In this document: in pieces, positions 18,975 through 57,540 of the stretch
How positions within the stretch are numbered: the first letter of the stretch is position 1
Layout of the letters: the number at the start of each line of letters is the position of its first letter
Origin: a virus
Lineage: Duplodnaviria > Heunggongvirae > Uroviricota > Caudoviricetes
Length of the DNA stretch: 64,000 nt
IMG/VR virus record: IMGVR_UViG_3300046008_000242
Span: 57,363 to 121,362 of that record
Reading direction: 5' to 3' (one strand)
Translations under genes and position numbers: made by a program
Notes under the pieces: generated by a model
The model's input: only the letters and a program-made list of their open reading frames with translations
Database searches by the model: none
Told to the model about the DNA's origin: nothing

Positions 18975-19286
18975 AATAGTATTGATTCGATTTGTTTTAT
19001 ATTATTTAATGCATTTCTCTAACATTTATAATATATCCATTTTATGTGGATATATTGTTGATTAAACAATCTTTTCACTTTGACCCAATCAACTCTACAT
19101 CATGTAAAATAAACGTTGTATATAGTCCAAATATGGATGTCTACTGTAAATATAACATATCGAAAGAGTCTTAATGTCAATAGATGAAGATGTTCGACAT
19201 CGAAAGAGTAATCTTAGACATCGAGTATGTTATTAACAGAGTCTTAAACTCCTTTCGAAATCTCTAATACTCCATTATGATAGACT

Positions 19287-19455
19287 ATGTCGATCCTTTG
19301 AGTTATGTTCTTTAGGTCATTTAATATTACTATATCATAACTTAGACGTTTATTATTCATATTATAGACATTCATTTACAACAATATTCTCATATAAAAT
19401 CTTTCGACTCCATTTAAGCATCCCACCAGATTAGTTTCTGAGTGGGATTTTTATT
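19287..19455 (+). ncRNA. Putative small RNA, unit A1 (~170 nt)
   Basis: TTTCGA-17-TATGAT promoter upstream; terminator 19420-19455; stem 19297-19307/19336-19346; no conserved ORF. Confidence 0.5.
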
Positions 19456-19761
19456 GTGTATAATTTACATTATAATAACATAGATTATTCCTTATAGCAT
19501 CCATTATTTGCCCAATAATCCACTATAATGGAACGTTATGTATACAGAGCAATCAACTCTATGTCATACATTTTTATCGTTGTTTAAACTCCAAATATAT
19601 CCATCTTATGATAATTCAACATATCGAAAGAGTCTTAAGATGAATCCTTCGATGTTATTGATTCGTCTTAAGCATCGAAAGAGTAATCTTAGACATCGAG
19701 TATGTAAACATCAACGTCTTAAACTCCTTTCGAAATGGTAGAATATCCACTATGATAGACT

Positions 19762-19940
19762 ATGTCGATCCTTTGAGTTATATCCGTTGTCTGCATTTAA
19801 TTGTTTTTAATATTACTAAGACTCTTATTATTCATTAACTAATCATATTAAGACTATCATTTACAACAATATTCCCATATAAAATCCTTCGAACCTCATT
19901 TCATCCTGTTTAGAATAATATCTAAACAGGATTTTTTATT
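19762..19940 (+). ncRNA. Putative small RNA, unit A2 (~180 nt)
   Basis: Same promoter; terminator atcctgtttaga/tctaaacaggat plus T-run. Confidence 0.5.
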
Positions 19941-20366
19941 GGGCGCAATTTATCAATATCCAATCAAGAATATACATTAAACCATCTATTATTTGTCCAA
20001 TAATCCACTCTAATGGAACATTCCATATATCATCCAATCAACTCTACATCATGTATAATTTACGTTGTTTAAACTCCAAATATAGATGTCTACTGTAAAT
20101 TCAACACATCGAAAGAGTCTTAAGATGTTTCTTTCGATATCTTAATCATCGAAATAGTAATCTCAGACATCGAATGTGTAATATACAAGGAAAGATATTC
20201 CTTTCGAAATCTCTAATACTCCATTATGATAGACTATGTCGATCCTTTGAGTTATGTTCTTTAGGTCATTTAATATTATTATATTCTAGTGTAACTTAGA
20301 CCCTTATTATACAATACATTTTATTGTAAATAATAGTAACAATAACATATAATTAATGATAAAGGT

Positions 20367-20849
20367 ATGGTAGACATAAAATTCACTAATGTATATTCAG
20401 ACGAATTGCTAGAGATATACATTAAGATGCGTAAGGCTAGATATGTTGGTTCCAATAAACATTATTCATCTAAGAGAGCAATAAAGAAACATCTTAAACA
20501 TATTATCTTACAAAGAAGACAAACAGAAAATCTCTTGGACATAATGATTATGACAATTGAAGATAAGATAGTCGGTATGAGTTTCCCTAGATTGACCAAA
20601 GATATCGATAAGATATTCTATGATATAGATACAACATGTATTAAGGTTGGTGCGATATTCGTGGATCCAGATTACAGGAATCAGAACATCGGATATGACG
20701 CATGTAGTCAGTTCTTTAAATTGTTCCCAGAATATACTAAGGTTTGGACTTCTAGAAAATGTAATACCGCGTCTATTGCTCTGGCATTAAAATTGGGATT
20801 TGAACGGACTCATGATAAAGGAGATTACGTTATCTTTAAAATGAGATAA
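20367..20849 (+). CDS. GNAT-family acetyltransferase
   Basis: IFVDPDYRNQNIG motif A; N.ASIALA.KLGF motif B. Confidence 0.8.
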   Translation: MVDIKFTNVYSDELLEIYIKMRKARYVGSNKHYSSKRAIKKHLKHIILQRRQTENLLDIMIMTIEDKIVGMSFPRLTKDIDKIFYDIDTTCIKVGAIFVDPDYRNQNIGYDACSQFFKLFPEYTKVWTSRKCNTASIALALKLGFERTHDKGDYVIFKMR

Positions 20850-20854
20850 AATAT

Positions 20855-20890
20855 CTTTCGATGATTGGGATAACATTTATAATAGATTTC
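20855..20890 (+). promoter_or_regulatory. Phage promoter CTTTCGATG..TATAATAGATTTC
   Basis: Same motif with identical 23-nt offset at 38294, 47919 and 63717; variants at 23185, 30836 and 41416. Confidence 0.8.
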
Positions 20891-21801: not shown

Positions 21802-22992
21802 CTAATTCATATAGAATTTATCAACGGTATGTTTCAATAATTTTTCTAATGCAATTTGTAATTCTAGCACATTTAAACCCCTTTTCCACTTTCTATCCAC
21901 TTCCATTATACCAGTATAATTTGTTATATTATAAAAATCCTTGATTTCTTTGATATATGAAATCAAGGATCGTTTATCATCTATTGATTTAAACACAGAA
22001 CTAATCTCGTTTATTCTATATTCATATTCTTTTATCTCGATTTTACGCTCATCTAAATATTTATAGAACTTGACTGATCCTTCCTCCAGTTTTTCATCAT
22101 CGACTTGTTTCCAATTAGAGTTATTAATCCCCATAATTTTACTTGGGTTGGTGACATTATATTTTTCTATATCATCTAGAATTTGTAGGACTAATGGTCT
22201 AGTAAATTTTATTTCCAAGATATGTTTCCTTATTTCTTTACATTCTGGAGTTTGCATATTACTAATGTAACCAGTTTTCTTAAAATTGGTATCTTTACCC
22301 TTTTGGATGCATTCTGGAGTTTGAGATGGAGTATAATATCCAGTTCTTTCAAAACATGTATCTTTACGTTTTTGGATACATTCTGGATTTTTCATATTAT
22401 GTGTATATCCGGTTTCCTCAAAATAACTTTGAGAATATTGTTCTCTTAATTTCGGATTAGCTAAATTACTAGTGAATCCAGTTTTCTCAAAAACGATATC
22501 CTGTCGGGTTTGGATACGTTTTGGGTCTTTCATATAATGAGTATATCCAGTTTTCTCAAAATGCGTATTTCTACATTTTTGGACACATTCTGGATTTTTC
22601 ATATGATGATATGCACTTATTGATATCTTCAACTCTTCATATTCTTCTTCGTTGATAAATTTATGTTTACCATCGGTGCATAATCGTCCAAATGCATGAA
22701 TCATCTTAGCGTGTAAATTACGGGTTAATCCCATCTCTATTAACAATTGGTGACATCTGTAATGTTCTCTTGCTGATAGATAGGCATAATTCAATTTATC
22801 AGTCACTCCACCCATCTTGAATGATCTAGGTAATATATGATGTTCTTCTGCGTACCCTAAAATTACATCCGCTTCTTTTTTAGTGGATGCTCGAATCCTG
22901 GCATTAGATACGATGGAGATATACTCTGCTGTTTGTTCATTATCTGAACATAATTCGATTATTTTATCGATATAGATATTATTGCTGGTCAT
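21802..22992 (-). CDS. HNH homing-endonuclease-like protein with 23-aa tandem repeats
   Basis: EEHHILPRSF..GG..D..N...LSAREHY.CH.LL motif; TGYxxxMxNPEC repeats. Confidence 0.8.
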   Translation of the reverse strand: MTSNNIYIDKIIELCSDNEQTAEYISIVSNARIRASTKKEADVILGYAEEHHILPRSFKMGGVTDKLNYAYLSAREHYRCHQLLIEMGLTRNLHAKMIHAFGRLCTDGKHKFINEEEYEELKISISAYHHMKNPECVQKCRNTHFEKTGYTHYMKDPKRIQTRQDIVFEKTGFTSNLANPKLREQYSQSYFEETGYTHNMKNPECIQKRKDTCFERTGYYTPSQTPECIQKGKDTNFKKTGYISNMQTPECKEIRKHILEIKFTRPLVLQILDDIEKYNVTNPSKIMGINNSNWKQVDDEKLEEGSVKFYKYLDERKIEIKEYEYRINEISSVFKSIDDKRSLISYIKEIKDFYNITNYTGIMEVDRKWKRGLNVLELQIALEKLLKHTVDKFYMN

Positions 22993-23089: not shown

Positions 23090-23129
23090 AATCCCACCAG
23101 AAATTTAATCTGAGTGGGATTTTTATTGG
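23090..23129 (+). terminator. ATCCC...GGGATTTTTATTG family terminator
   Basis: Near-identical to the unit A1 terminator. Confidence 0.7.
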
Positions 23130-36379: not shown

Positions 36380-36547
36380 ATGCCAACTCCGTACATTAAG
36401 AAAGTAGCCGATATATATAACAAACCCATAGAAGATGTCGAGAGATTATGGGATAAAGCCAAAGAATCCGTTGGTGATGAAAACAAAGAAGATTATGCTT
36501 TAATTACTCACATATTCCATAAAATTGTCAAATCTCATTATGCATAA
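36380..36547 (+). CDS. Small T4-like hypothetical protein (55 aa)
   Basis: MPTPYIKK..VERLWDKAK..DYAL.T.IF; AAGGA RBS. Confidence 0.55.
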   Translation: MPTPYIKKVADIYNKPIEDVERLWDKAKESVGDENKEDYALITHIFHKIVKSHYA

Positions 36548-37592
36548 ATTCAATTATAATTGGAAGTTATCTGAAACTGAATTTACAAAAGATAAGTTCA
36601 AGGTATTCTCTTGTTTCGCTTGTTGTGGTGGTTCTACGATGGGTTATAAACTTGTTGGTGGGAATGTTCTTGGTTGTGTAGAAATAGATCCAAGAATGAA
36701 CAAAGTTTATAATGATAATCATCATCCAAAGTATAGTTTCCTAGAAGACATTAGGGAATTCGTCAAAAGAGATGATTTACCAGAAGAATTATACAATTTA
36801 GATATCCTTGATGGTAGTCCACCCTGTTCTAGCTTCAGTATGAATGGTAATAGAGATAAGGATTGGGGTAAGGAGAAGATGTTCTCCGAGGGTCAAGCCA
36901 AACAAGTGTTGGATACATTATTCTTTGATTTTATTGAACTTGCTAAGAAATTACAACCAAAAATTGTTATCGCAGAAAATGTGAAAGGATTGATTCTTGG
37001 TAAGGCATTAAAATATGTTGACAGGATCTATAAAGAATTTGATGAAGCAGGATATTATTGTCAACATTTTCTATTGGATGGTTCCAAAATGGGATTACCA
37101 CAACGGAGAGAACGTGTATTCTTTGTCTGTCTAAGGAAGGATCTAGGTGAACCGTTCTTGGAATATAAAGGGTTAGAATTAAAACCAAGATTGATAATGG
37201 AATTTGATGAACCAATTATACCATTTAAAGATATATCAGAAGATGAAGTATATCCTGACAAAGAATTAGAACCATCAATAAGAAAATTATACCCATTGGT
37301 TAAACCAGGAGATGGATTTGATAAGGCTGAATTATCCAATGGTAATTTCTTTTCGTATAAGAAATTACATCCAGATAGACCATGTAATACATTAACAACT
37401 GGTAAATCTTGTTTTCATCATGTCATCCCAAGAAGAATGACAGATAAAGAATTTATATTGGCAAGCTCATTTCCATTGGATTTCAAATTTGGTGATGTTA
37501 AACCAGATTATGCTTGTGGTATGTCTGTACCACCAATTATGATGGCAAACGTTGCGTCTAATGTATATGAACAATGGTTGAAACACCTTTAA
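36540..37592 (+). CDS. C5-cytosine DNA methyltransferase
   Basis: F.C.GG motif I, GSPPC motif IV, ENVKG motif VI, QRRERVFF motif VIII, GMSVPP motif X. Confidence 0.92.
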   Translation: MHKFNYNWKLSETEFTKDKFKVFSCFACCGGSTMGYKLVGGNVLGCVEIDPRMNKVYNDNHHPKYSFLEDIREFVKRDDLPEELYNLDILDGSPPCSSFSMNGNRDKDWGKEKMFSEGQAKQVLDTLFFDFIELAKKLQPKIVIAENVKGLILGKALKYVDRIYKEFDEAGYYCQHFLLDGSKMGLPQRRERVFFVCLRKDLGEPFLEYKGLELKPRLIMEFDEPIIPFKDISEDEVYPDKELEPSIRKLYPLVKPGDGFDKAELSNGNFFSYKKLHPDRPCNTLTTGKSCFHHVIPRRMTDKEFILASSFPLDFKFGDVKPDYACGMSVPPIMMANVASNVYEQWLKHL

Positions 37593-38634: not shown

Positions 38635-38984
38635 GATTAGATTCTTTTGGGCAATCTTAAGATCCTCAATTAACTGAACAAGTTGGTTGGGGATTTTTAT
38701 TGCGTAAAGGTTTCTTATATCATACATTATTTGCTCGTTAATGGACTCTAGTGGAATCTTCCGTATATTATCCAATCAACTCTATGTTATGTATAATTTA
38801 CGTTCCACTAGAGTCCAATATAGTGTATTTCATTGTAATGTCAACATATCGAAGGATTTGCATGAATACTCTTTCGATACATTAAACATCGAAAGAGTCT
38901 TATCGGTAATCTATAACATCGAATGTGTATCTATCAATATCCGAAACTCCTTTCGAAATCTCTAATACTCCACTATGATAGACT

Positions 38985-39159
38985 ATGTCGATCCTTTGAG
39001 TTATGTTCTTTAGGTGGCATTAATATTACTATATTATATTCTAGTGTAACTTAGACGTTTATTATTCATATTATAGACATTCATTTACAACAATATTCCC
39101 ATATAAAATCCTTCGATCCAGATCCCGTTGAGAACACCCGTTCCTTCGGGATTTTTATT
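38985..39159 (+). ncRNA. Putative small RNA, unit B1 (~175 nt)
   Basis: TTTCGA-17-TATGAT promoter; terminator 39121-39159. Confidence 0.5.
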
Positions 39160-39430
39160 GGATACAATTTGACAAACATCACGGTATCAATATACATAAA
39201 CAATCATTATTTGGACGTTAATCCATCCTAATGGAACGTCCTGTATATTATCCAATCAACTCTATGTCATATAGAATAAACGTTGCATACAATCCAAATA
39301 TAGATGTCTATGTTAATTCAACATATCGAAACAGTCTTCATGTATTCTTTCGATATGTTAATCATCGAGCTTGTTATAATCAGTTAAAGATACTCCTTTC
39401 GAAATCGATAAAACTCCATTATACTAGACT

Positions 39431-39605
39431 ATGTCGACGTTTTGAGTTATATCCGTTGTTTACATTTAGATGGTTTAATATTACCAAGCGTCTTCTATAT
39501 GTGTATTATACATTAAACTAATCATATTAAGACATTCATTTACAGTTAAAATATTTCGACTCCAGATCCCGTTGAGAACCAAAAAGTTCCTTCGGGATTT
39601 TTATT
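39431..39605 (+). ncRNA. Putative small RNA, unit B2 (~175 nt)
   Basis: TTTCGA-17-TATACT promoter; terminator 39565-39605. Confidence 0.5.
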
Positions 39606-40026
39606 AGATTCAATTTATCAATATCCAACCAAGAACATTCCTTATAACATCCATTATTTGTCCAATAATCCATCTTAATGGAATGTCCCATATATCATCC
39701 AATCAACTCTATGTCATGTAAAATAAACGAACAATAGTAGACAAATATAGATGTTCCTTGTAAATTTAACATATCGAAAGAGTCTTAAGACAATTCCTTT
39801 GATGTTATTGGTGTCGAAAGAGTAATCTTAGACATCGAGTGTGTAATATACATGGAAAGATACTCCTTTCGAAAACATAGAAACTCCACTATGATAGACT
39901 ATGTCGATCCTTTGAGTTATATCCATTAGGTGGTTTTAATATTACTTTATTATATTCTAGTGTATTCCTCGACATAATAATCACTATATAACCATATACA
40001 ATAAACAAATAATCATATAGGAACAA

Positions 40027-40521
40027 ATGGAACAATTATCCTTAAATCAATATCTTTCTGTTATCTCATCATTATATTTTCTTTCAGACACTCAAAATGT
40101 TGGTGGAATCCCAGAACATTTCTTTTCAGATATTAATGAACAATTAAACATCAGTTCACCGAAAGGAATTAGACAATGGTTCAAAGACAATCTTAGATCT
40201 AAGGGATTCTATAACATACCAAAGATAGAAGAAGATGTAGAAGATATTGTCAGAAAAATCATCCGTCTTAGAAAAGAATACGTCCCAGTTGAAACTATTA
40301 CAATTCAATGTAATAAGGCTATTCGAAATCCCAACAAGGAAATTCGATTCAATGATAATACAACAAAGAAGATTGATAAACGAACATTGAAAGAATTGTA
40401 TTCAATTTTAACAGATGAATATATTAAACCAGAACACAAATTAGAATTACAGAATTACGCAGCTGAATCTTATGACAACATATTGAAAATTGTTGAAACA
40501 AACCGATTGGTGATGAAATGA
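40027..40521 (+). CDS. Hypothetical protein, paralog of 41778-42257
   Basis: Shared LSV....Y..SD, W..DN...K.FY..P, FND.T..K.D.R and IKP motifs. Confidence 0.65.
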   Translation: MEQLSLNQYLSVISSLYFLSDTQNVGGIPEHFFSDINEQLNISSPKGIRQWFKDNLRSKGFYNIPKIEEDVEDIVRKIIRLRKEYVPVETITIQCNKAIRNPNKEIRFNDNTTKKIDKRTLKELYSILTDEYIKPEHKLELQNYAAESYDNILKIVETNRLVMK

Positions 40522-40653: not shown

Positions 40654-41382
40654 TTAGAATAAATTTTCTGTTAATTGTTTTTCTGAACAAGATAATTGAG
40701 GGTGTTGTGAATATCCATGGGATACCATATAATCCTCTATTGTCTTAAATACAATTCCTCTATTACCAGAGGATGTCAATAAAGCTGCGGTGAATGCTCC
40801 TTGATATTTTCCATCAATGAATGCGTCTGCAGCAGTCTCAGAATCTTTAGCTGCAGAAAAACATATTACATTATCTACATTAGAAATGTTAAATGGAGTT
40901 TTATTATTAACATTTTCTAAAGGTGATGGTATGTATCTCGAAACATTTGAATTTAGTTTTAATTCCCTAGTCAATGAACCAGAATGACAACAATCCATTA
41001 AACATGTTATCTCAACATTAGGATATTTCGAGAAGATTTGTTGTAATTCATCGTCTGTGATATAATTGTTAGACCATTTACCATTTGAATCAATTAGGTC
41101 GTATGGACATAAGATTTCGGTTAACCCATCATCTTCTGTTCCATTATCGCAAGGAACTTGAGAACCATGACCTGAATAATGGAATACAAATTTACCAACG
41201 GAATTAGATAACAATTCCTCTAGATTACGAATAATCTCAGATTTGGTTGCCCGTTCATCATGTAACCTAATTACATCATATCCATATTGTTTCAATTCGA
41301 ACGCTATATGTTCTGAATCATTGATACATCCTCGTAACGGAGCTGTATTATATTTGTTGATTGCCACTGATAATGCTTTCAT
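40654..41382 (-). CDS. Metacaspase (peptidase C14)
   Basis: LRGCIND, HYSGHGSQ (catalytic His), DCCHSG (catalytic Cys), GAFT, Q.PQL. Confidence 0.92.
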   Translation of the reverse strand: MKALSVAINKYNTAPLRGCINDSEHIAFELKQYGYDVIRLHDERATKSEIIRNLEELLSNSVGKFVFHYSGHGSQVPCDNGTEDDGLTEILCPYDLIDSNGKWSNNYITDDELQQIFSKYPNVEITCLMDCCHSGSLTRELKLNSNVSRYIPSPLENVNNKTPFNISNVDNVICFSAAKDSETAADAFIDGKYQGAFTAALLTSSGNRGIVFKTIEDYMVSHGYSQHPQLSCSEKQLTENLF

Positions 41383-42975: not shown

Positions 42976-43437
42976 ATGATTGAAAAAGTATTGATATACG
43001 CAGACGGTGCTTGTAAATCTAATGGCAGAGAAAACTCTAATGGTGGTTGGGGTGCTGTTATGTCATATAAAGGTATCGAGAAGGAAATCTGGGGTGGTGA
43101 ACGCAATACAACAAACAACAGAATGGAATTACTTGCTGTAATAAATGCATTGGAATTACTGAAACGACCATGTCCTGTTAGTATATTTTGCGATTCAAAA
43201 TATGTTTTAGACGGAGCATCCTCTTGGATTAAAGGATGGAAACGTAATGGTTGGAAGACTGCATCTAAACAACCAGTTAAGAATGAAGATCTATGGCGTC
43301 GATTAGATGAAACAATGTCATTACATGAAATTGAATTTGTATGGATTAAGGGACATAATGGGCATCCAGGAAATGAACGAGCAGACGCATTGGCTAACAA
43401 AGGATATTATGAATTGATTGAAGGGTTATATGACTAA
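42976..43437 (+). CDS. rnhA: Ribonuclease HI
   Basis: [52 protein letters not shown]. Confidence 0.95.
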
Positions 43438-44338
43438 TCTATTTGATGATGAATATATCATGTTAGATGAATTCAGGAAGTTCTCATTCCAACATATAGC
43501 ATTAGGTGATGTAGACCCTATCTATACCATGATTAGAAATTCTGAATTATCTGATAATGAGAAGAAACGTCTGATATTCTCCAATCTGATGGTATATGAT
43601 TTAAAACATTCAATTAAACTTACTTCTATACCAGACGACCAGTATTATGACTATGTAAAAATGTTATTCACTGAAGCCAAAGTCGGCAAAGATAGAATTG
43701 ATGTGGCATCAAGAGAAACTAATGTCAAATCAAGAAGTTATAACACTCAGATAGATAAAATGAGATGTAATACCCCAGAACAATGGATAGATAATGTATT
43801 ACAGAATACTGTCGATTGGAACACTTCTATTGAATCCGCAAAGATGATACCAACATTTGGAGAATACTTTGCATTTAAAGTTGCGGATATGGTAGAGTCT
43901 ATCTTTGATATGAATTATACAGTAAAATGGGATGATTCATTTAGAAGAACAATACCAAAGGGTTCATTATCTGGTTTTGAATTGGTTAAGACAGGATCTG
44001 CAACCAAACATCGTTCATCTGAACAGATTAGACAAGATCCTTTATTAGAACAATTCTTCTTGACTGAATTGGAATTCTTCAAGGACTATAAATGTCCACA
44101 TAATCCAACAAGATGTATTGGAGTCACCGAGATTGAGACATTCCTATGTGATTTTAGAAAGACATTTAAAGGAACATTAAATAAAGGAGATAAGGTGTTG
44201 AAACTAAAATCTGCGTTAGAATTTAATGTTGGTTCTGATATAGCAGATAAATTGAAATCATCTGTTGATAATCTTATTGATAGAAGAGCAAAATATATTG
44301 ATGTTAATGTAACCGAAAACGAATGTGAGAAATTATAA
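43430..44338 (+). CDS. aGPT-Pplase/amino acid:DNA transferase-like DNA hypermodification enzyme
   Basis: [20 protein letters not shown] and [11 protein letters not shown] motifs (HhH-glycosylase-derived family). Confidence 0.65.
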
Positions 44339-56526: not shown

Positions 56527-57540
56527 ATGTCGTTGTATATAGATAAGAAATACATCCATCTGTTCTCATCTTCCATGCGCAACTTCCGAAAGATAAATGA
56601 GGAAACATGGAAGATGAGTTGTCCTATCTGTGGTGATTCAAAAAAGAACACAAAGAAGGCGAGAGGATTCATCTATACTGTTAAAAATGATATGTTCTAT
56701 CGTTGTTTCAATTGTAGTTACTCCACCACATTTGGTAATCTGTTGAAAGAAGTCAATCATCTATTGTATTCTGATTATATTGTGGAACGATACAAACAAG
56801 GTGTTAATAAACATAGATCCAATAAGACAATTGTGATTCCAGAATCAACTCAAAAGTTTTCTGAATCTTCAATCTACAATTCGAAGATTCTATCTCAATT
56901 AACACCAGTTGTTGAATCTAAAGAAGCAGTTGAGTTCCTAACAAGGCGACAGATTCCAAAAGATAAATGGAGTCTGTTGTATTACACCACACAATATAAG
57001 AAATTGATAAATTCAATTTTACCAGAGAAATTTGATTCTGAATTAGATTCACCTAGAGTTGTCATTCCATATTTCAACCAACAAGGTTATATCTTCCAAT
57101 TAACAGGTAGAGCAATCGATAACAATTTCATGAGATATTCTAATATCAAATTGATGGAAACGGATTACCCTGTATATGGTTTAGAACGGGTGGATCTATC
57201 CAAAAAGATATATGTTGTGGAAGGTCCTATTGATTCATTGTTCCTAGATAATTGTATTGCCGTATCTGGATCCGCGTTCAACAGTAATGCGTTCTTAAAG
57301 GAACATAAAGAAGATGTTGTATTGGTTTATGATAATGAACCAAGATCAATTGAAATAATGAAATTAATGGAAAACAGTATTAAACATAAATTTCATGTAT
57401 GTATATGGGACAATAAGATACAACAGAAGGACATCAATGAGATGATTATGGCAGGAGTGGATGTTAAACGTATTATAGATAATAATACGTTTGTAGGAGC
57501 AGAAGCTCTAATGAAATTTATAACATGGAGGAAATGTTAA
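56527..57540 (+). CDS. DNA primase (T4 gp61-like)
   Basis: CPICGDS..KARG..C.NC zinc finger; VEGPIDSLFL; DNEPR; KDINEM. Confidence 0.92.
   Translation: MSLYIDKKYIHLFSSSMRNFRKINEETWKMSCPICGDSKKNTKKARGFIYTVKNDMFYRCFNCSYSTTFGNLLKEVNHLLYSDYIVERYKQGVNKHRSNKTIVIPESTQKFSESSIYNSKILSQLTPVVESKEAVEFLTRRQIPKDKWSLLYYTTQYKKLINSILPEKFDSELDSPRVVIPYFNQQGYIFQLTGRAIDNNFMRYSNIKLMETDYPVYGLERVDLSKKIYVVEGPIDSLFLDNCIAVSGSAFNSNAFLKEHKEDVVLVYDNEPRSIEIMKLMENSIKHKFHVCIWDNKIQQKDINEMIMAGVDVKRIIDNNTFVGAEALMKFITWRKC

Follow-up and report, generated by a model that had tools for sequence, protein, structure and literature searches.

A rare family of tandem, largely gene-free units with predicted promoters and terminators in a T4-like phage

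What purpose is served by a repeat that carries a promoter and a terminator of its own and no conserved open reading frame (ORF) between them? This question is raised by two tandem arrays, A and B, in a 64,000-nucleotide stretch of virus DNA, positions 57,363 to 121,362 of the 249,362-bp IMG/VR virus record IMGVR_UViG_3300046008_000242 (G000:C1:57363-121362; hereafter the window, whose coordinates are genome coordinates minus 57362). The original prediction, made from the letters alone, described a multicopy, diversified family of cassettes, each with a promoter, a short non-coding transcript and a terminator. This description was borne out, including the lack of a conserved ORF and of an Rfam family. 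Its count of six units in two loci was an underestimate, since the whole genome holds 25 promoter-plus-leader units of ~470 bp in eight loci. No described RNA or repeat family matches the units, and no description of such arrays was found in the literature; the family is real and unusual. We tentatively read the units as genes for an unstructured non-coding RNA (ncRNA) made at high dosage.

Size and distribution of the unit family

A BLAST search of the whole genome with one unit as query gave 43 matches, with E values down to 1e-106. Six module models run with nhmmer recovered 25 promoter, 25 leader, 30 U, 27 S and 19 T modules at E values of 1e-10 to 1e-22, and the promoter and leader modules co-occurred in all 25 units. 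The exact 13-mer TAGACTATGTCGA occurred 25 times, compared with once for the reversed control. The repeats are thus far above chance. They lie at about 9.6-12, 39.9-40.7, 43.5-44.1, 76.4-77.7 (array A), 96.1-97.4 (array B), 136.9-138.7, 175.5-177.6 and 209.4-211.1 kb of the genome, in tandem arrays of 2-5 with uniform orientation inside each locus. About 17 of the 25 units are terminated, and in the other 7-8 an identical promoter and leader form the 5' end of an mRNA. The copies are mosaics assembled from few alleles per module.

The record is 98% complete and has a GC content of 32%. Its homolog of the baseplate wedge protein gp6 shares 35-40% identity with those of Pelagibacter, Methylophilales and cyanobacterial T4-like myophages, and judged by its protein sequences the phage carrying the arrays is T4-like. 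A gp25-like gene directly adjoins array A. No tRNA genes were found, nor was a close isolate: a blastn search of the array against 50,697 phage records returned zero matches.

Related phages, to which the original prediction had looked for a check, do carry conserved units. Pattern scans of IMG/VR retrieved a single complete genome of a sister phage (G001; 234,735 bp; terminal repeats present) together with its fragments, and beyond these sister-phage contigs gave chance matches only. The gp25-like proteins of the two phages are 82% identical. The sister phage has 24 exact copies of TAGACTATGTCGA compared with 25 in this phage (reversed-pattern controls, 0 and 1), and its units show the identical module order, tandem periods of 460-480 bp and a terminator in about two-thirds. 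A third lineage is represented by the ENA contig L056, whose gp25 homolog is 64% identical. It holds at least three units, of which two are terminated and stand directly upstream of gp25 and one heads ORFs; its start blocks (ACTATGTTGCGCTTTGAGTT, GACTATGTCGGCTTTCAGCT) have diverged, and so have its S and U modules. Two metagenome scans gave 0 matches and 50 chance matches, none of which contained a module, and a search for loci related to the ORF behind unit B3 returned none. As far as these scans reach, the unit family is rare and confined to one phage group. In this phage the units occupy ~12 kb, ~5% of the genome. A capsid has a fixed volume, yet this phage spends that share of it on 25 protein-free units, and a relative at 82% protein identity keeps 24. 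Such a cost implies a strong benefit.

Unit anatomy and predicted transcripts

All units follow one order: a 3' block with its terminator, the S, U and B modules, the promoter, TAGACT joined to ATGTCGAYNNTTTSAGTTA, and then either a body with the next terminator or a gene. The 3' block reads CATTTACAACAATATTCCCATATAAAATCCTTCGA and is followed by the intrinsic terminator. The S module consists of ATTTA.., ATCCATTATTTG-N6-TAATCCAYYYTARTGGAA, and the U module of CCAATCAACTCTA..AAACG..CAAATATAG. The B module carries 3-5 TCGA boxes, ATCGAAAG(AGT) or its complement CTTTCGAT, in both orientations. Inverted repeats between the S and U modules are present in some units and disrupted by mosaicism in others. 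In B1, an 18-nt inverted repeat (window 38739-38756 / 38803-38820, 94% complementary) joins the two modules and gave a weak, miRNA-like Rfam hairpin (E 0.019).

The six copies of CTTTCGAAA in the window begin where the original prediction had placed them (19252, 19727, 20201, 38950, 39396 and 39866), each 24 nt before TATGAT, or TATACT in B2. Across the 25 units, the -35 element is TTTCGA in 17 and a canonical TTGACT or TTGCCT in eight, the spacer is N17, and the -10 element is TATGAT, TATAGT or TATACT. That the same alignment columns hold canonical promoters in eight units is the main argument for the remainder, and it suggests that the TTTCGA forms are sigma70-type promoters as well. The sole invariant element is the 13-mer made of TAGACT and ATGTCGA, which spans the predicted start. 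It is partly palindromic, contains GAC-N3-GTC and looks like an operator; conservation of the promoter-proximal element extends from -6 to +20. At genome 10484-10496 (L111 1485-1497), the 13-mer TAGACTATGTCGA is inverted in place, so that the unit reads CGACATAGTCTA. The inversion has the appearance of a template switch at a quasi-palindrome, in which the GAC..GTC half-sites were retained and the 5' end of the RNA was altered.

The units share a CTTTCGA box at -35 with a second, highly conserved class of promoters, TCTTTCGATG-N14-TATAATAGATTTCAAGTTGG, with ~20 copies across the genome. The original prediction had noted this related class of gene promoters as CTTTCGATG..TATAATAGATT, correctly. 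Five sites lie in the window at 20856, 38295, 41417, 47920 and 63718 (genome 78218, 95657, 98779, 105282 and 121080), in addition to ~15 more elsewhere. Its start-proximal word TTTCAAGTTGG resembles the TTTSAGTTAG of the units, and the class also occurs in the sister phage (L028, L024). Because ~20 other promoters share the box, it is a general upstream element of this phage; by analogy with the Mot box, a phage activator probably binds there. Pfam searches for MotA and AsiA gave no match, and since the control genomes were equally silent this result is uninformative. The sequence TCGA is 4.7 times denser in the arrays, with 183 of 898 sites falling within 5% of the genome, and ATCGAA and TTCGAT occur 51 and 27 times compared with ~5.6 expected per strand. 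We infer from these sequences that the promoters fire and the terminators stop transcription. Whichever reading of the units holds, this uncultured group of phages has two promoter classes, recognizable by the invariant 13-mer and by the CTTTCGA box.

The 5' block starts at the first nucleotide of each predicted transcript or leader of arrays A and B (Table 1), in agreement with the original prediction, and takes the form ATGTCGACGTTTTGAGTTAT in B2. The 3' block and terminator hairpin are likewise present in the four units where they had been noted (A1, A2, B1 and B2). For these four, the transcript lengths predicted earlier, 169-179 nt, are revised to 166, 175, 172 and 172 nt when counted to the fifth U. 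Over the whole family, the predicted RNA comprises a conserved 20-nt 5' end, a body of ~100 nt and an intrinsic terminator. Its length is 145-194 nt in this phage, with corresponding ranges of 130-194 nt for the sister phage and ~170-180 nt for the third lineage, whereas the sequence of the body is mosaic. No conserved ORF was found: the longest in the predicted transcripts span 16-33 codons and differ in strand and frame between units. A leaderless four-codon mini-gene (ATG TCG ATC CTT TGA) was considered and rejected, as 18 sister-phage units no longer have its stop codon (TTTCAG) and one unit lacks the ATG.

The body shows no sign of a conserved fold. Rfam 15 gave no match at gathering score in the window and only chance-level matches in the arrays (E >= 0.019). 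RNAalifold on 30 terminated units and alignment folding of 26 units, drawn from the two phages, recovered the terminator stem only. Stem sequences of at least four kinds occur among the terminators and show compensatory changes; three of the four consensus pairs covary. Compared with dinucleotide shuffles, body folding had a mean z of +0.09 (+0.82 for the reverse complement). The original prediction had argued for an RNA structure on the plus strand from a helix of TTTGAGTTATG with CATAACTTAGA, kept by G-U wobble where TGTAACTTAGAC occurs. The latter is indeed present in A3 and B1, but the argument is not supported, because there is no consensus fold beyond the terminator, the folding energy of the body equals that of shuffled sequence, and the helix is confined to the ~11 of 25 units that have the word AACTTAGAC and is lost in the sister phage. 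There the 5' block reads TTTCAG with no compensating partner, and the pairing is interrupted every 2-3 bp. The duplex z averages -0.36 in this phage, where the best cases reach -2.5 and -2.65, and -0.13 in the sister phage. The recurring feature is a word in sense orientation, TTACT-N-AAGAC or AACTTAGAC, rather than a pairing: with ~9 expected, TAGAC has 56 sense and 10 antisense occurrences.

Composition sets the bodies apart. The 30 bodies from the two phages contain 7.3% ± 1.8 G, 44% U and 15% C (76% AT), and those of L056 8.6-8.7% G. Ordinary same-strand intergenic regions (n = 77) have 16% ± 3.6 G, with 9% or less in one of the 77, and coding sense strands have 18%. Transcription-linked C-to-T deamination of the sense strand would produce a bias opposite to the observed C>G, and mutation pressure is therefore an unlikely cause. 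The RNA body is conserved in length and composition, but not in sequence.

Possible complementarity of the 5' block to 16S rRNA was also considered. Its main form ATGTCGATCCTTTGAGTTAT (e.g., 19287-19306) can pair with the universal 16S rRNA region 907-926 over 11 contiguous positions, or 17 with one bulge; primer 907R for that region reads CCGTCAATTCCTTTGAGTTT. The match is probably due to chance, since the TTTCAG, ACAC and ACGG variants break it.

Readings of the units

The conservation of length and composition without sequence favors reading the units as autonomous, regulated genes for a high-dosage unstructured ncRNA, whose promoter and leader also drive neighboring accessory genes. We hold this reading at slightly less than even confidence. 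The TCGA boxes would recruit a putative phage activator to the sigma70-type promoter, and transcription would then yield a 130-194-nt RNA whose unfolded body, G-poor and U-rich, lies between the 20-nt 5' end and an intrinsic terminator. Produced from ~17 terminated copies per genome, the RNA could reach a high dosage. Acting through its linear sequence and not through a fold, it might sequester, as a decoy or sponge, an abundant host protein that binds single-stranded RNA. Both this role and the candidate partners, Rho, Hfq, S1 and RNase E, are inferred. Apart from this, the promoter-leader part would serve accessory genes next to the arrays and one antisense transcript that enters the terminase gene. 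Stand-alone terminated units that drive no gene fit this reading: the unit at genome 43789 is oriented opposite to its neighbors, and two more lie upstream of gp25 in L056.

Rho prefers RNA that is untranslated, G-poor and richer in C than in G. A more specific version, which we consider doubtful, is that bulk early RNA of this kind from ~17 genes soaks up a host single-strand RNA binder, chiefly Rho, with the TCGA-box control region and the start-site palindrome timing the burst. If true, this would be an RNA-based way past Rho-dependent termination of early transcripts in a T4-like phage. If RNA is the product at all, the units would form the largest phage-encoded family of ncRNA genes known to us, one that acts without a fold, and would offer a route to RNA-based takeover of the host.

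Several observations weigh against an ncRNA gene family. Between the two phages, the untranscribed S module and the promoter are better conserved than the RNA body, which points to a function at the DNA level, and 7-8 units per genome head mRNAs with the same promoter and leader. The C>G bias extends in some degree to the sense strand of the whole unit, and even the 5' block exists in a TTTGAG and a TTTCAG form. Within the phage genome we found no complementary target of this block, only five 12-mers with one mismatch and no pattern. Furthermore, a scan with a generic sigma70 consensus did not call the TTTCGA-type promoters, and a generic terminator scan called one of the four terminators in the window, that of A2, so that scans of this type are uninformative for these units.

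The strongest alternative, which we regard as possible though rather unlikely, is that the units are regulatory and recombination cassettes akin to the promoter-early and promoter-middle stem-loop (PeSL/PmSL) cassettes described in T4-type phages (Arbiol et al. 2010, PMC2839356; Comeau et al. 2014, PMC4122927). They would supply insulating terminators, regulated promoters of high strength and extended homology for shuffling accessory and homing-endonuclease genes; the RNAs would be by-products and the ORF-less units empty or spare cassettes. The host phage is itself T4-like, and like PeSL/PmSL, the units are repeated composites of a terminator and a promoter, the latter predicted to be of the sigma70-like -35/N17/-10 type or its activator-box variant. 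Both also sit among accessory genes and mark gain, loss and exchange between close relatives. Orthologous arrays of the two phages differ in their units (three versus two before the ortholog of the B3 ORF; four plus an endonuclease gene versus five), and homologous HNH endonuclease genes lie inside different arrays, one of them filling a unit whose counterpart here has no ORF. The mosaic copies with few alleles per module and the strong conservation of untranscribed modules agree with such cassettes as well. However, empty cassettes would not be expected to hold a G-depleted body with a fixed length of ~170 nt in three lineages, nor a near-constant total of 25 versus 24.

The anatomy also differs. 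The stem-loop of a PeSL lies directly upstream of the promoter (PMC4122927), whereas here ~290 bp of conserved S, U and B modules intervene between the terminator and the next promoter. A PeSL is short and ends with a gene's Shine-Dalgarno sequence and start codon, whereas the units are five times as long and ~17 of the 25 end at a terminator. Unlike PeSLs, the units have a conserved untranslated leader after the start, are about two-thirds gene-free and form tandem arrays of 2-5. Since these defining features of PeSLs are lacking, we do not count the units as members; they are best described as a much larger, largely gene-free variant of the PeSL kind. If DNA is the point, the PeSL type of cassette would come to include a far larger unit, equipped with activator boxes of its own and an operator-like start site, and the units would provide a defined model of how T4-like phages shuffle accessory and homing-endonuclease genes.

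An improbable alternative is another function at the DNA level: a sink or enhancer of TCGA boxes for a binding protein, an operator role of the 13-mer, or R-loop origins in the style of phage T4, at which a promoter transcript would prime replication. The density of TCGA and the excess of ATCGAA/TTCGAT in the arrays would fit the first, and the GAC-N3-GTC within the 13-mer, together with its single inversion in place, the second. The T4 origins oriF and oriG consist of a middle-mode promoter dependent on activators (MotA/AsiA) and a downstream unwinding element, number about five, and have no dedicated terminator and no tandem repeats. Like these origins, the units are present several times per genome and have a promoter, here with a probable activator box, that leads into AT-rich DNA; they differ in their terminators, their tandem repetition and their transcript. 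A G-poor, U-rich RNA is intrinsically unfolded and, judged by its composition, would form weak rU:dA hybrids and hence a poor persistent R-loop, which argues weakly against an origin of this type. A sink of binding sites, for its part, would need neither an intrinsic terminator nor a fixed transcript length, and the shared orientation of the units in an array and strand-specific words such as TAGAC are also at odds with a purely DNA-level function.

Slightly less probable still are antitermination-gated tandem promoters following the PR'-tR' logic of phage lambda, whose short transcript is the 6S RNA, or StxS in Stx phages (Sy et al. 2020, PMC7547250). The 13-mer and 5' block would load a phage factor for read-through, so that the arrays would be switchable multi-promoter boosters of the downstream operon and the short RNAs would exist before the switch only. 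Both systems have a promoter with an intrinsic terminator less than 200 nt on (predicted at 130-194 nt in the units) before a gene block, and a further likeness is the short non-coding product, which in the lambda type is able to act in trans together with Hfq. Terminated leaders that can become small RNAs have a precedent (PMC7547250). Most arrays precede gene blocks on the same strand, their last unit has no terminator, and the conserved element from -6 to +20 is promoter-proximal, all as this alternative would have it. The lambda element, however, is a single-copy gate controlled by Q, whereas the units occur in 25 copies; the two Pfam families of Q antiterminators, PF06530 and PF03589, had no match in the 249-kb genome, with a positive E. 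coli control, a negative that may not extend to an unrelated antiterminator. In addition, the stand-alone terminated units are not followed by an operon, or they run opposite to their neighbors, and the last unit of an array is constitutively open, so that nothing is gated there.

The units also differ from the type III antitoxin ToxI, in which tandem repeats of ~35 nt share one transcript beside an endoribonuclease toxin gene: they are ~470 bp long, each has its own promoter and terminator, and the adjacent ORFs are GNAT or unknowns, although no search directed at toxins was made. The weakest alternative, a structured decoy, RNA-polymerase-binding or guide RNA built on the G-U-tolerant 5' helix, is largely refuted by the folding results above, although G-U pairs do keep that helix in A3 and B1.

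Array coordinates and neighboring genes

Table 1 Features of arrays A and B and of a solitary module, in window coordinates
Feature	Position	Strand	Basis
A1 control region: U module (CCAATCAACTCTA...), B module (ATCGAAAG / CTTTCGAT boxes)	19079..19239	+	nhmmer modules, alignment
A1 promoter: -35 TTTCGA, N17, -10 TATGAT (19276-19281), TAGACT	19243..19286	+	alignment; canonical columns in 8 other units
A1 predicted 166-nt ncRNA: 5' block 19287-19306, G-poor body, 3' block, terminator ~19420-19447 + U run	19287..19452	+	
A2 S, U, B modules (ATCCATTATTTG..TAATCCACTATAATGGAA; CAATCAACTCTA; TCGA boxes)	19456..19716	+	nhmmer
A2 promoter	19718..19761	+	alignment, nhmmer
A2 predicted 175-nt ncRNA; terminator stem 19903-19932	19762..19936	+	terminator also from generic scan
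A3 S, U, B modules	19941..20189	+	nhmmer
A3 promoter	20192..20235	+	alignment, nhmmer
A3 leader, without terminator, into GNAT acetyltransferase ORF (20367-20849)	20236..20366	+	
B1 S, U, B modules; terminator of upstream ORF before them, ~38660-38701	38707..38937	+	nhmmer
B1 promoter	38941..38984	+	alignment, nhmmer
B1 predicted 172-nt ncRNA with terminator	38985..39156	+	
B2 S, U, B modules	39160..39383	+	nhmmer
B2 promoter, -10 TATACT	39387..39430	+	alignment, nhmmer
B2 predicted 172-nt ncRNA, 5' block variant ATGTCGACGTTTTGAGTTAT, terminator	39431..39602	+	
B3 S, U, B modules	39607..39853	+	nhmmer
B3 promoter	39858..39900	+	alignment, nhmmer
B3 leader, without terminator, into 164-aa ORF of unknown function (40027-40521)	39901..40026	+	
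Solitary 3' block and terminator module, outside the arrays	23091..23128	+	BLAST, query 341-377, 87% identity

The neighbors of the arrays are a GNAT gene, unknown ORFs and homing endonucleases. The sister-phage ortholog of the B3 ORF stands behind the same kind of unit. The HNH_3 endonuclease genes of the two phages (PF13392; 55% identity) lie at L111 1811-2482 on the minus strand, equal to genome 10810-11481, and at 1443-2084 on the plus strand of the sister-phage locus L023. The gene in this phage has its own CTTTCGA..TATAATAGA promoter, and the sister copy fills a unit beside the terminase gene. In both phages, a terminator-less unit in antisense orientation points into the large terminase gene (PF03237/PF17289) at its 3' end, from genome 40628 onward (L112 ~1129-1190) and from L023 2425 onward, which predicts a conserved early antisense RNA against this late gene.

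Other genes near the arrays were also annotated. A homing-endonuclease-like protein (phrog_655, DUF7487) is encoded at window 21802-22992 on the minus strand, 1 kb from array A. A C5 cytosine methylase (PF00145) lies at 36525-37592 (+), and a caspase-domain protein (PF00656) at 40654-41382 (-), just downstream of array B. A weak match to the amino acid:DNA transferase family PF18724 at 43418-44338 (+), which scored 24.2 bits and thus below the cut-off, may point to DNA hypermodification.

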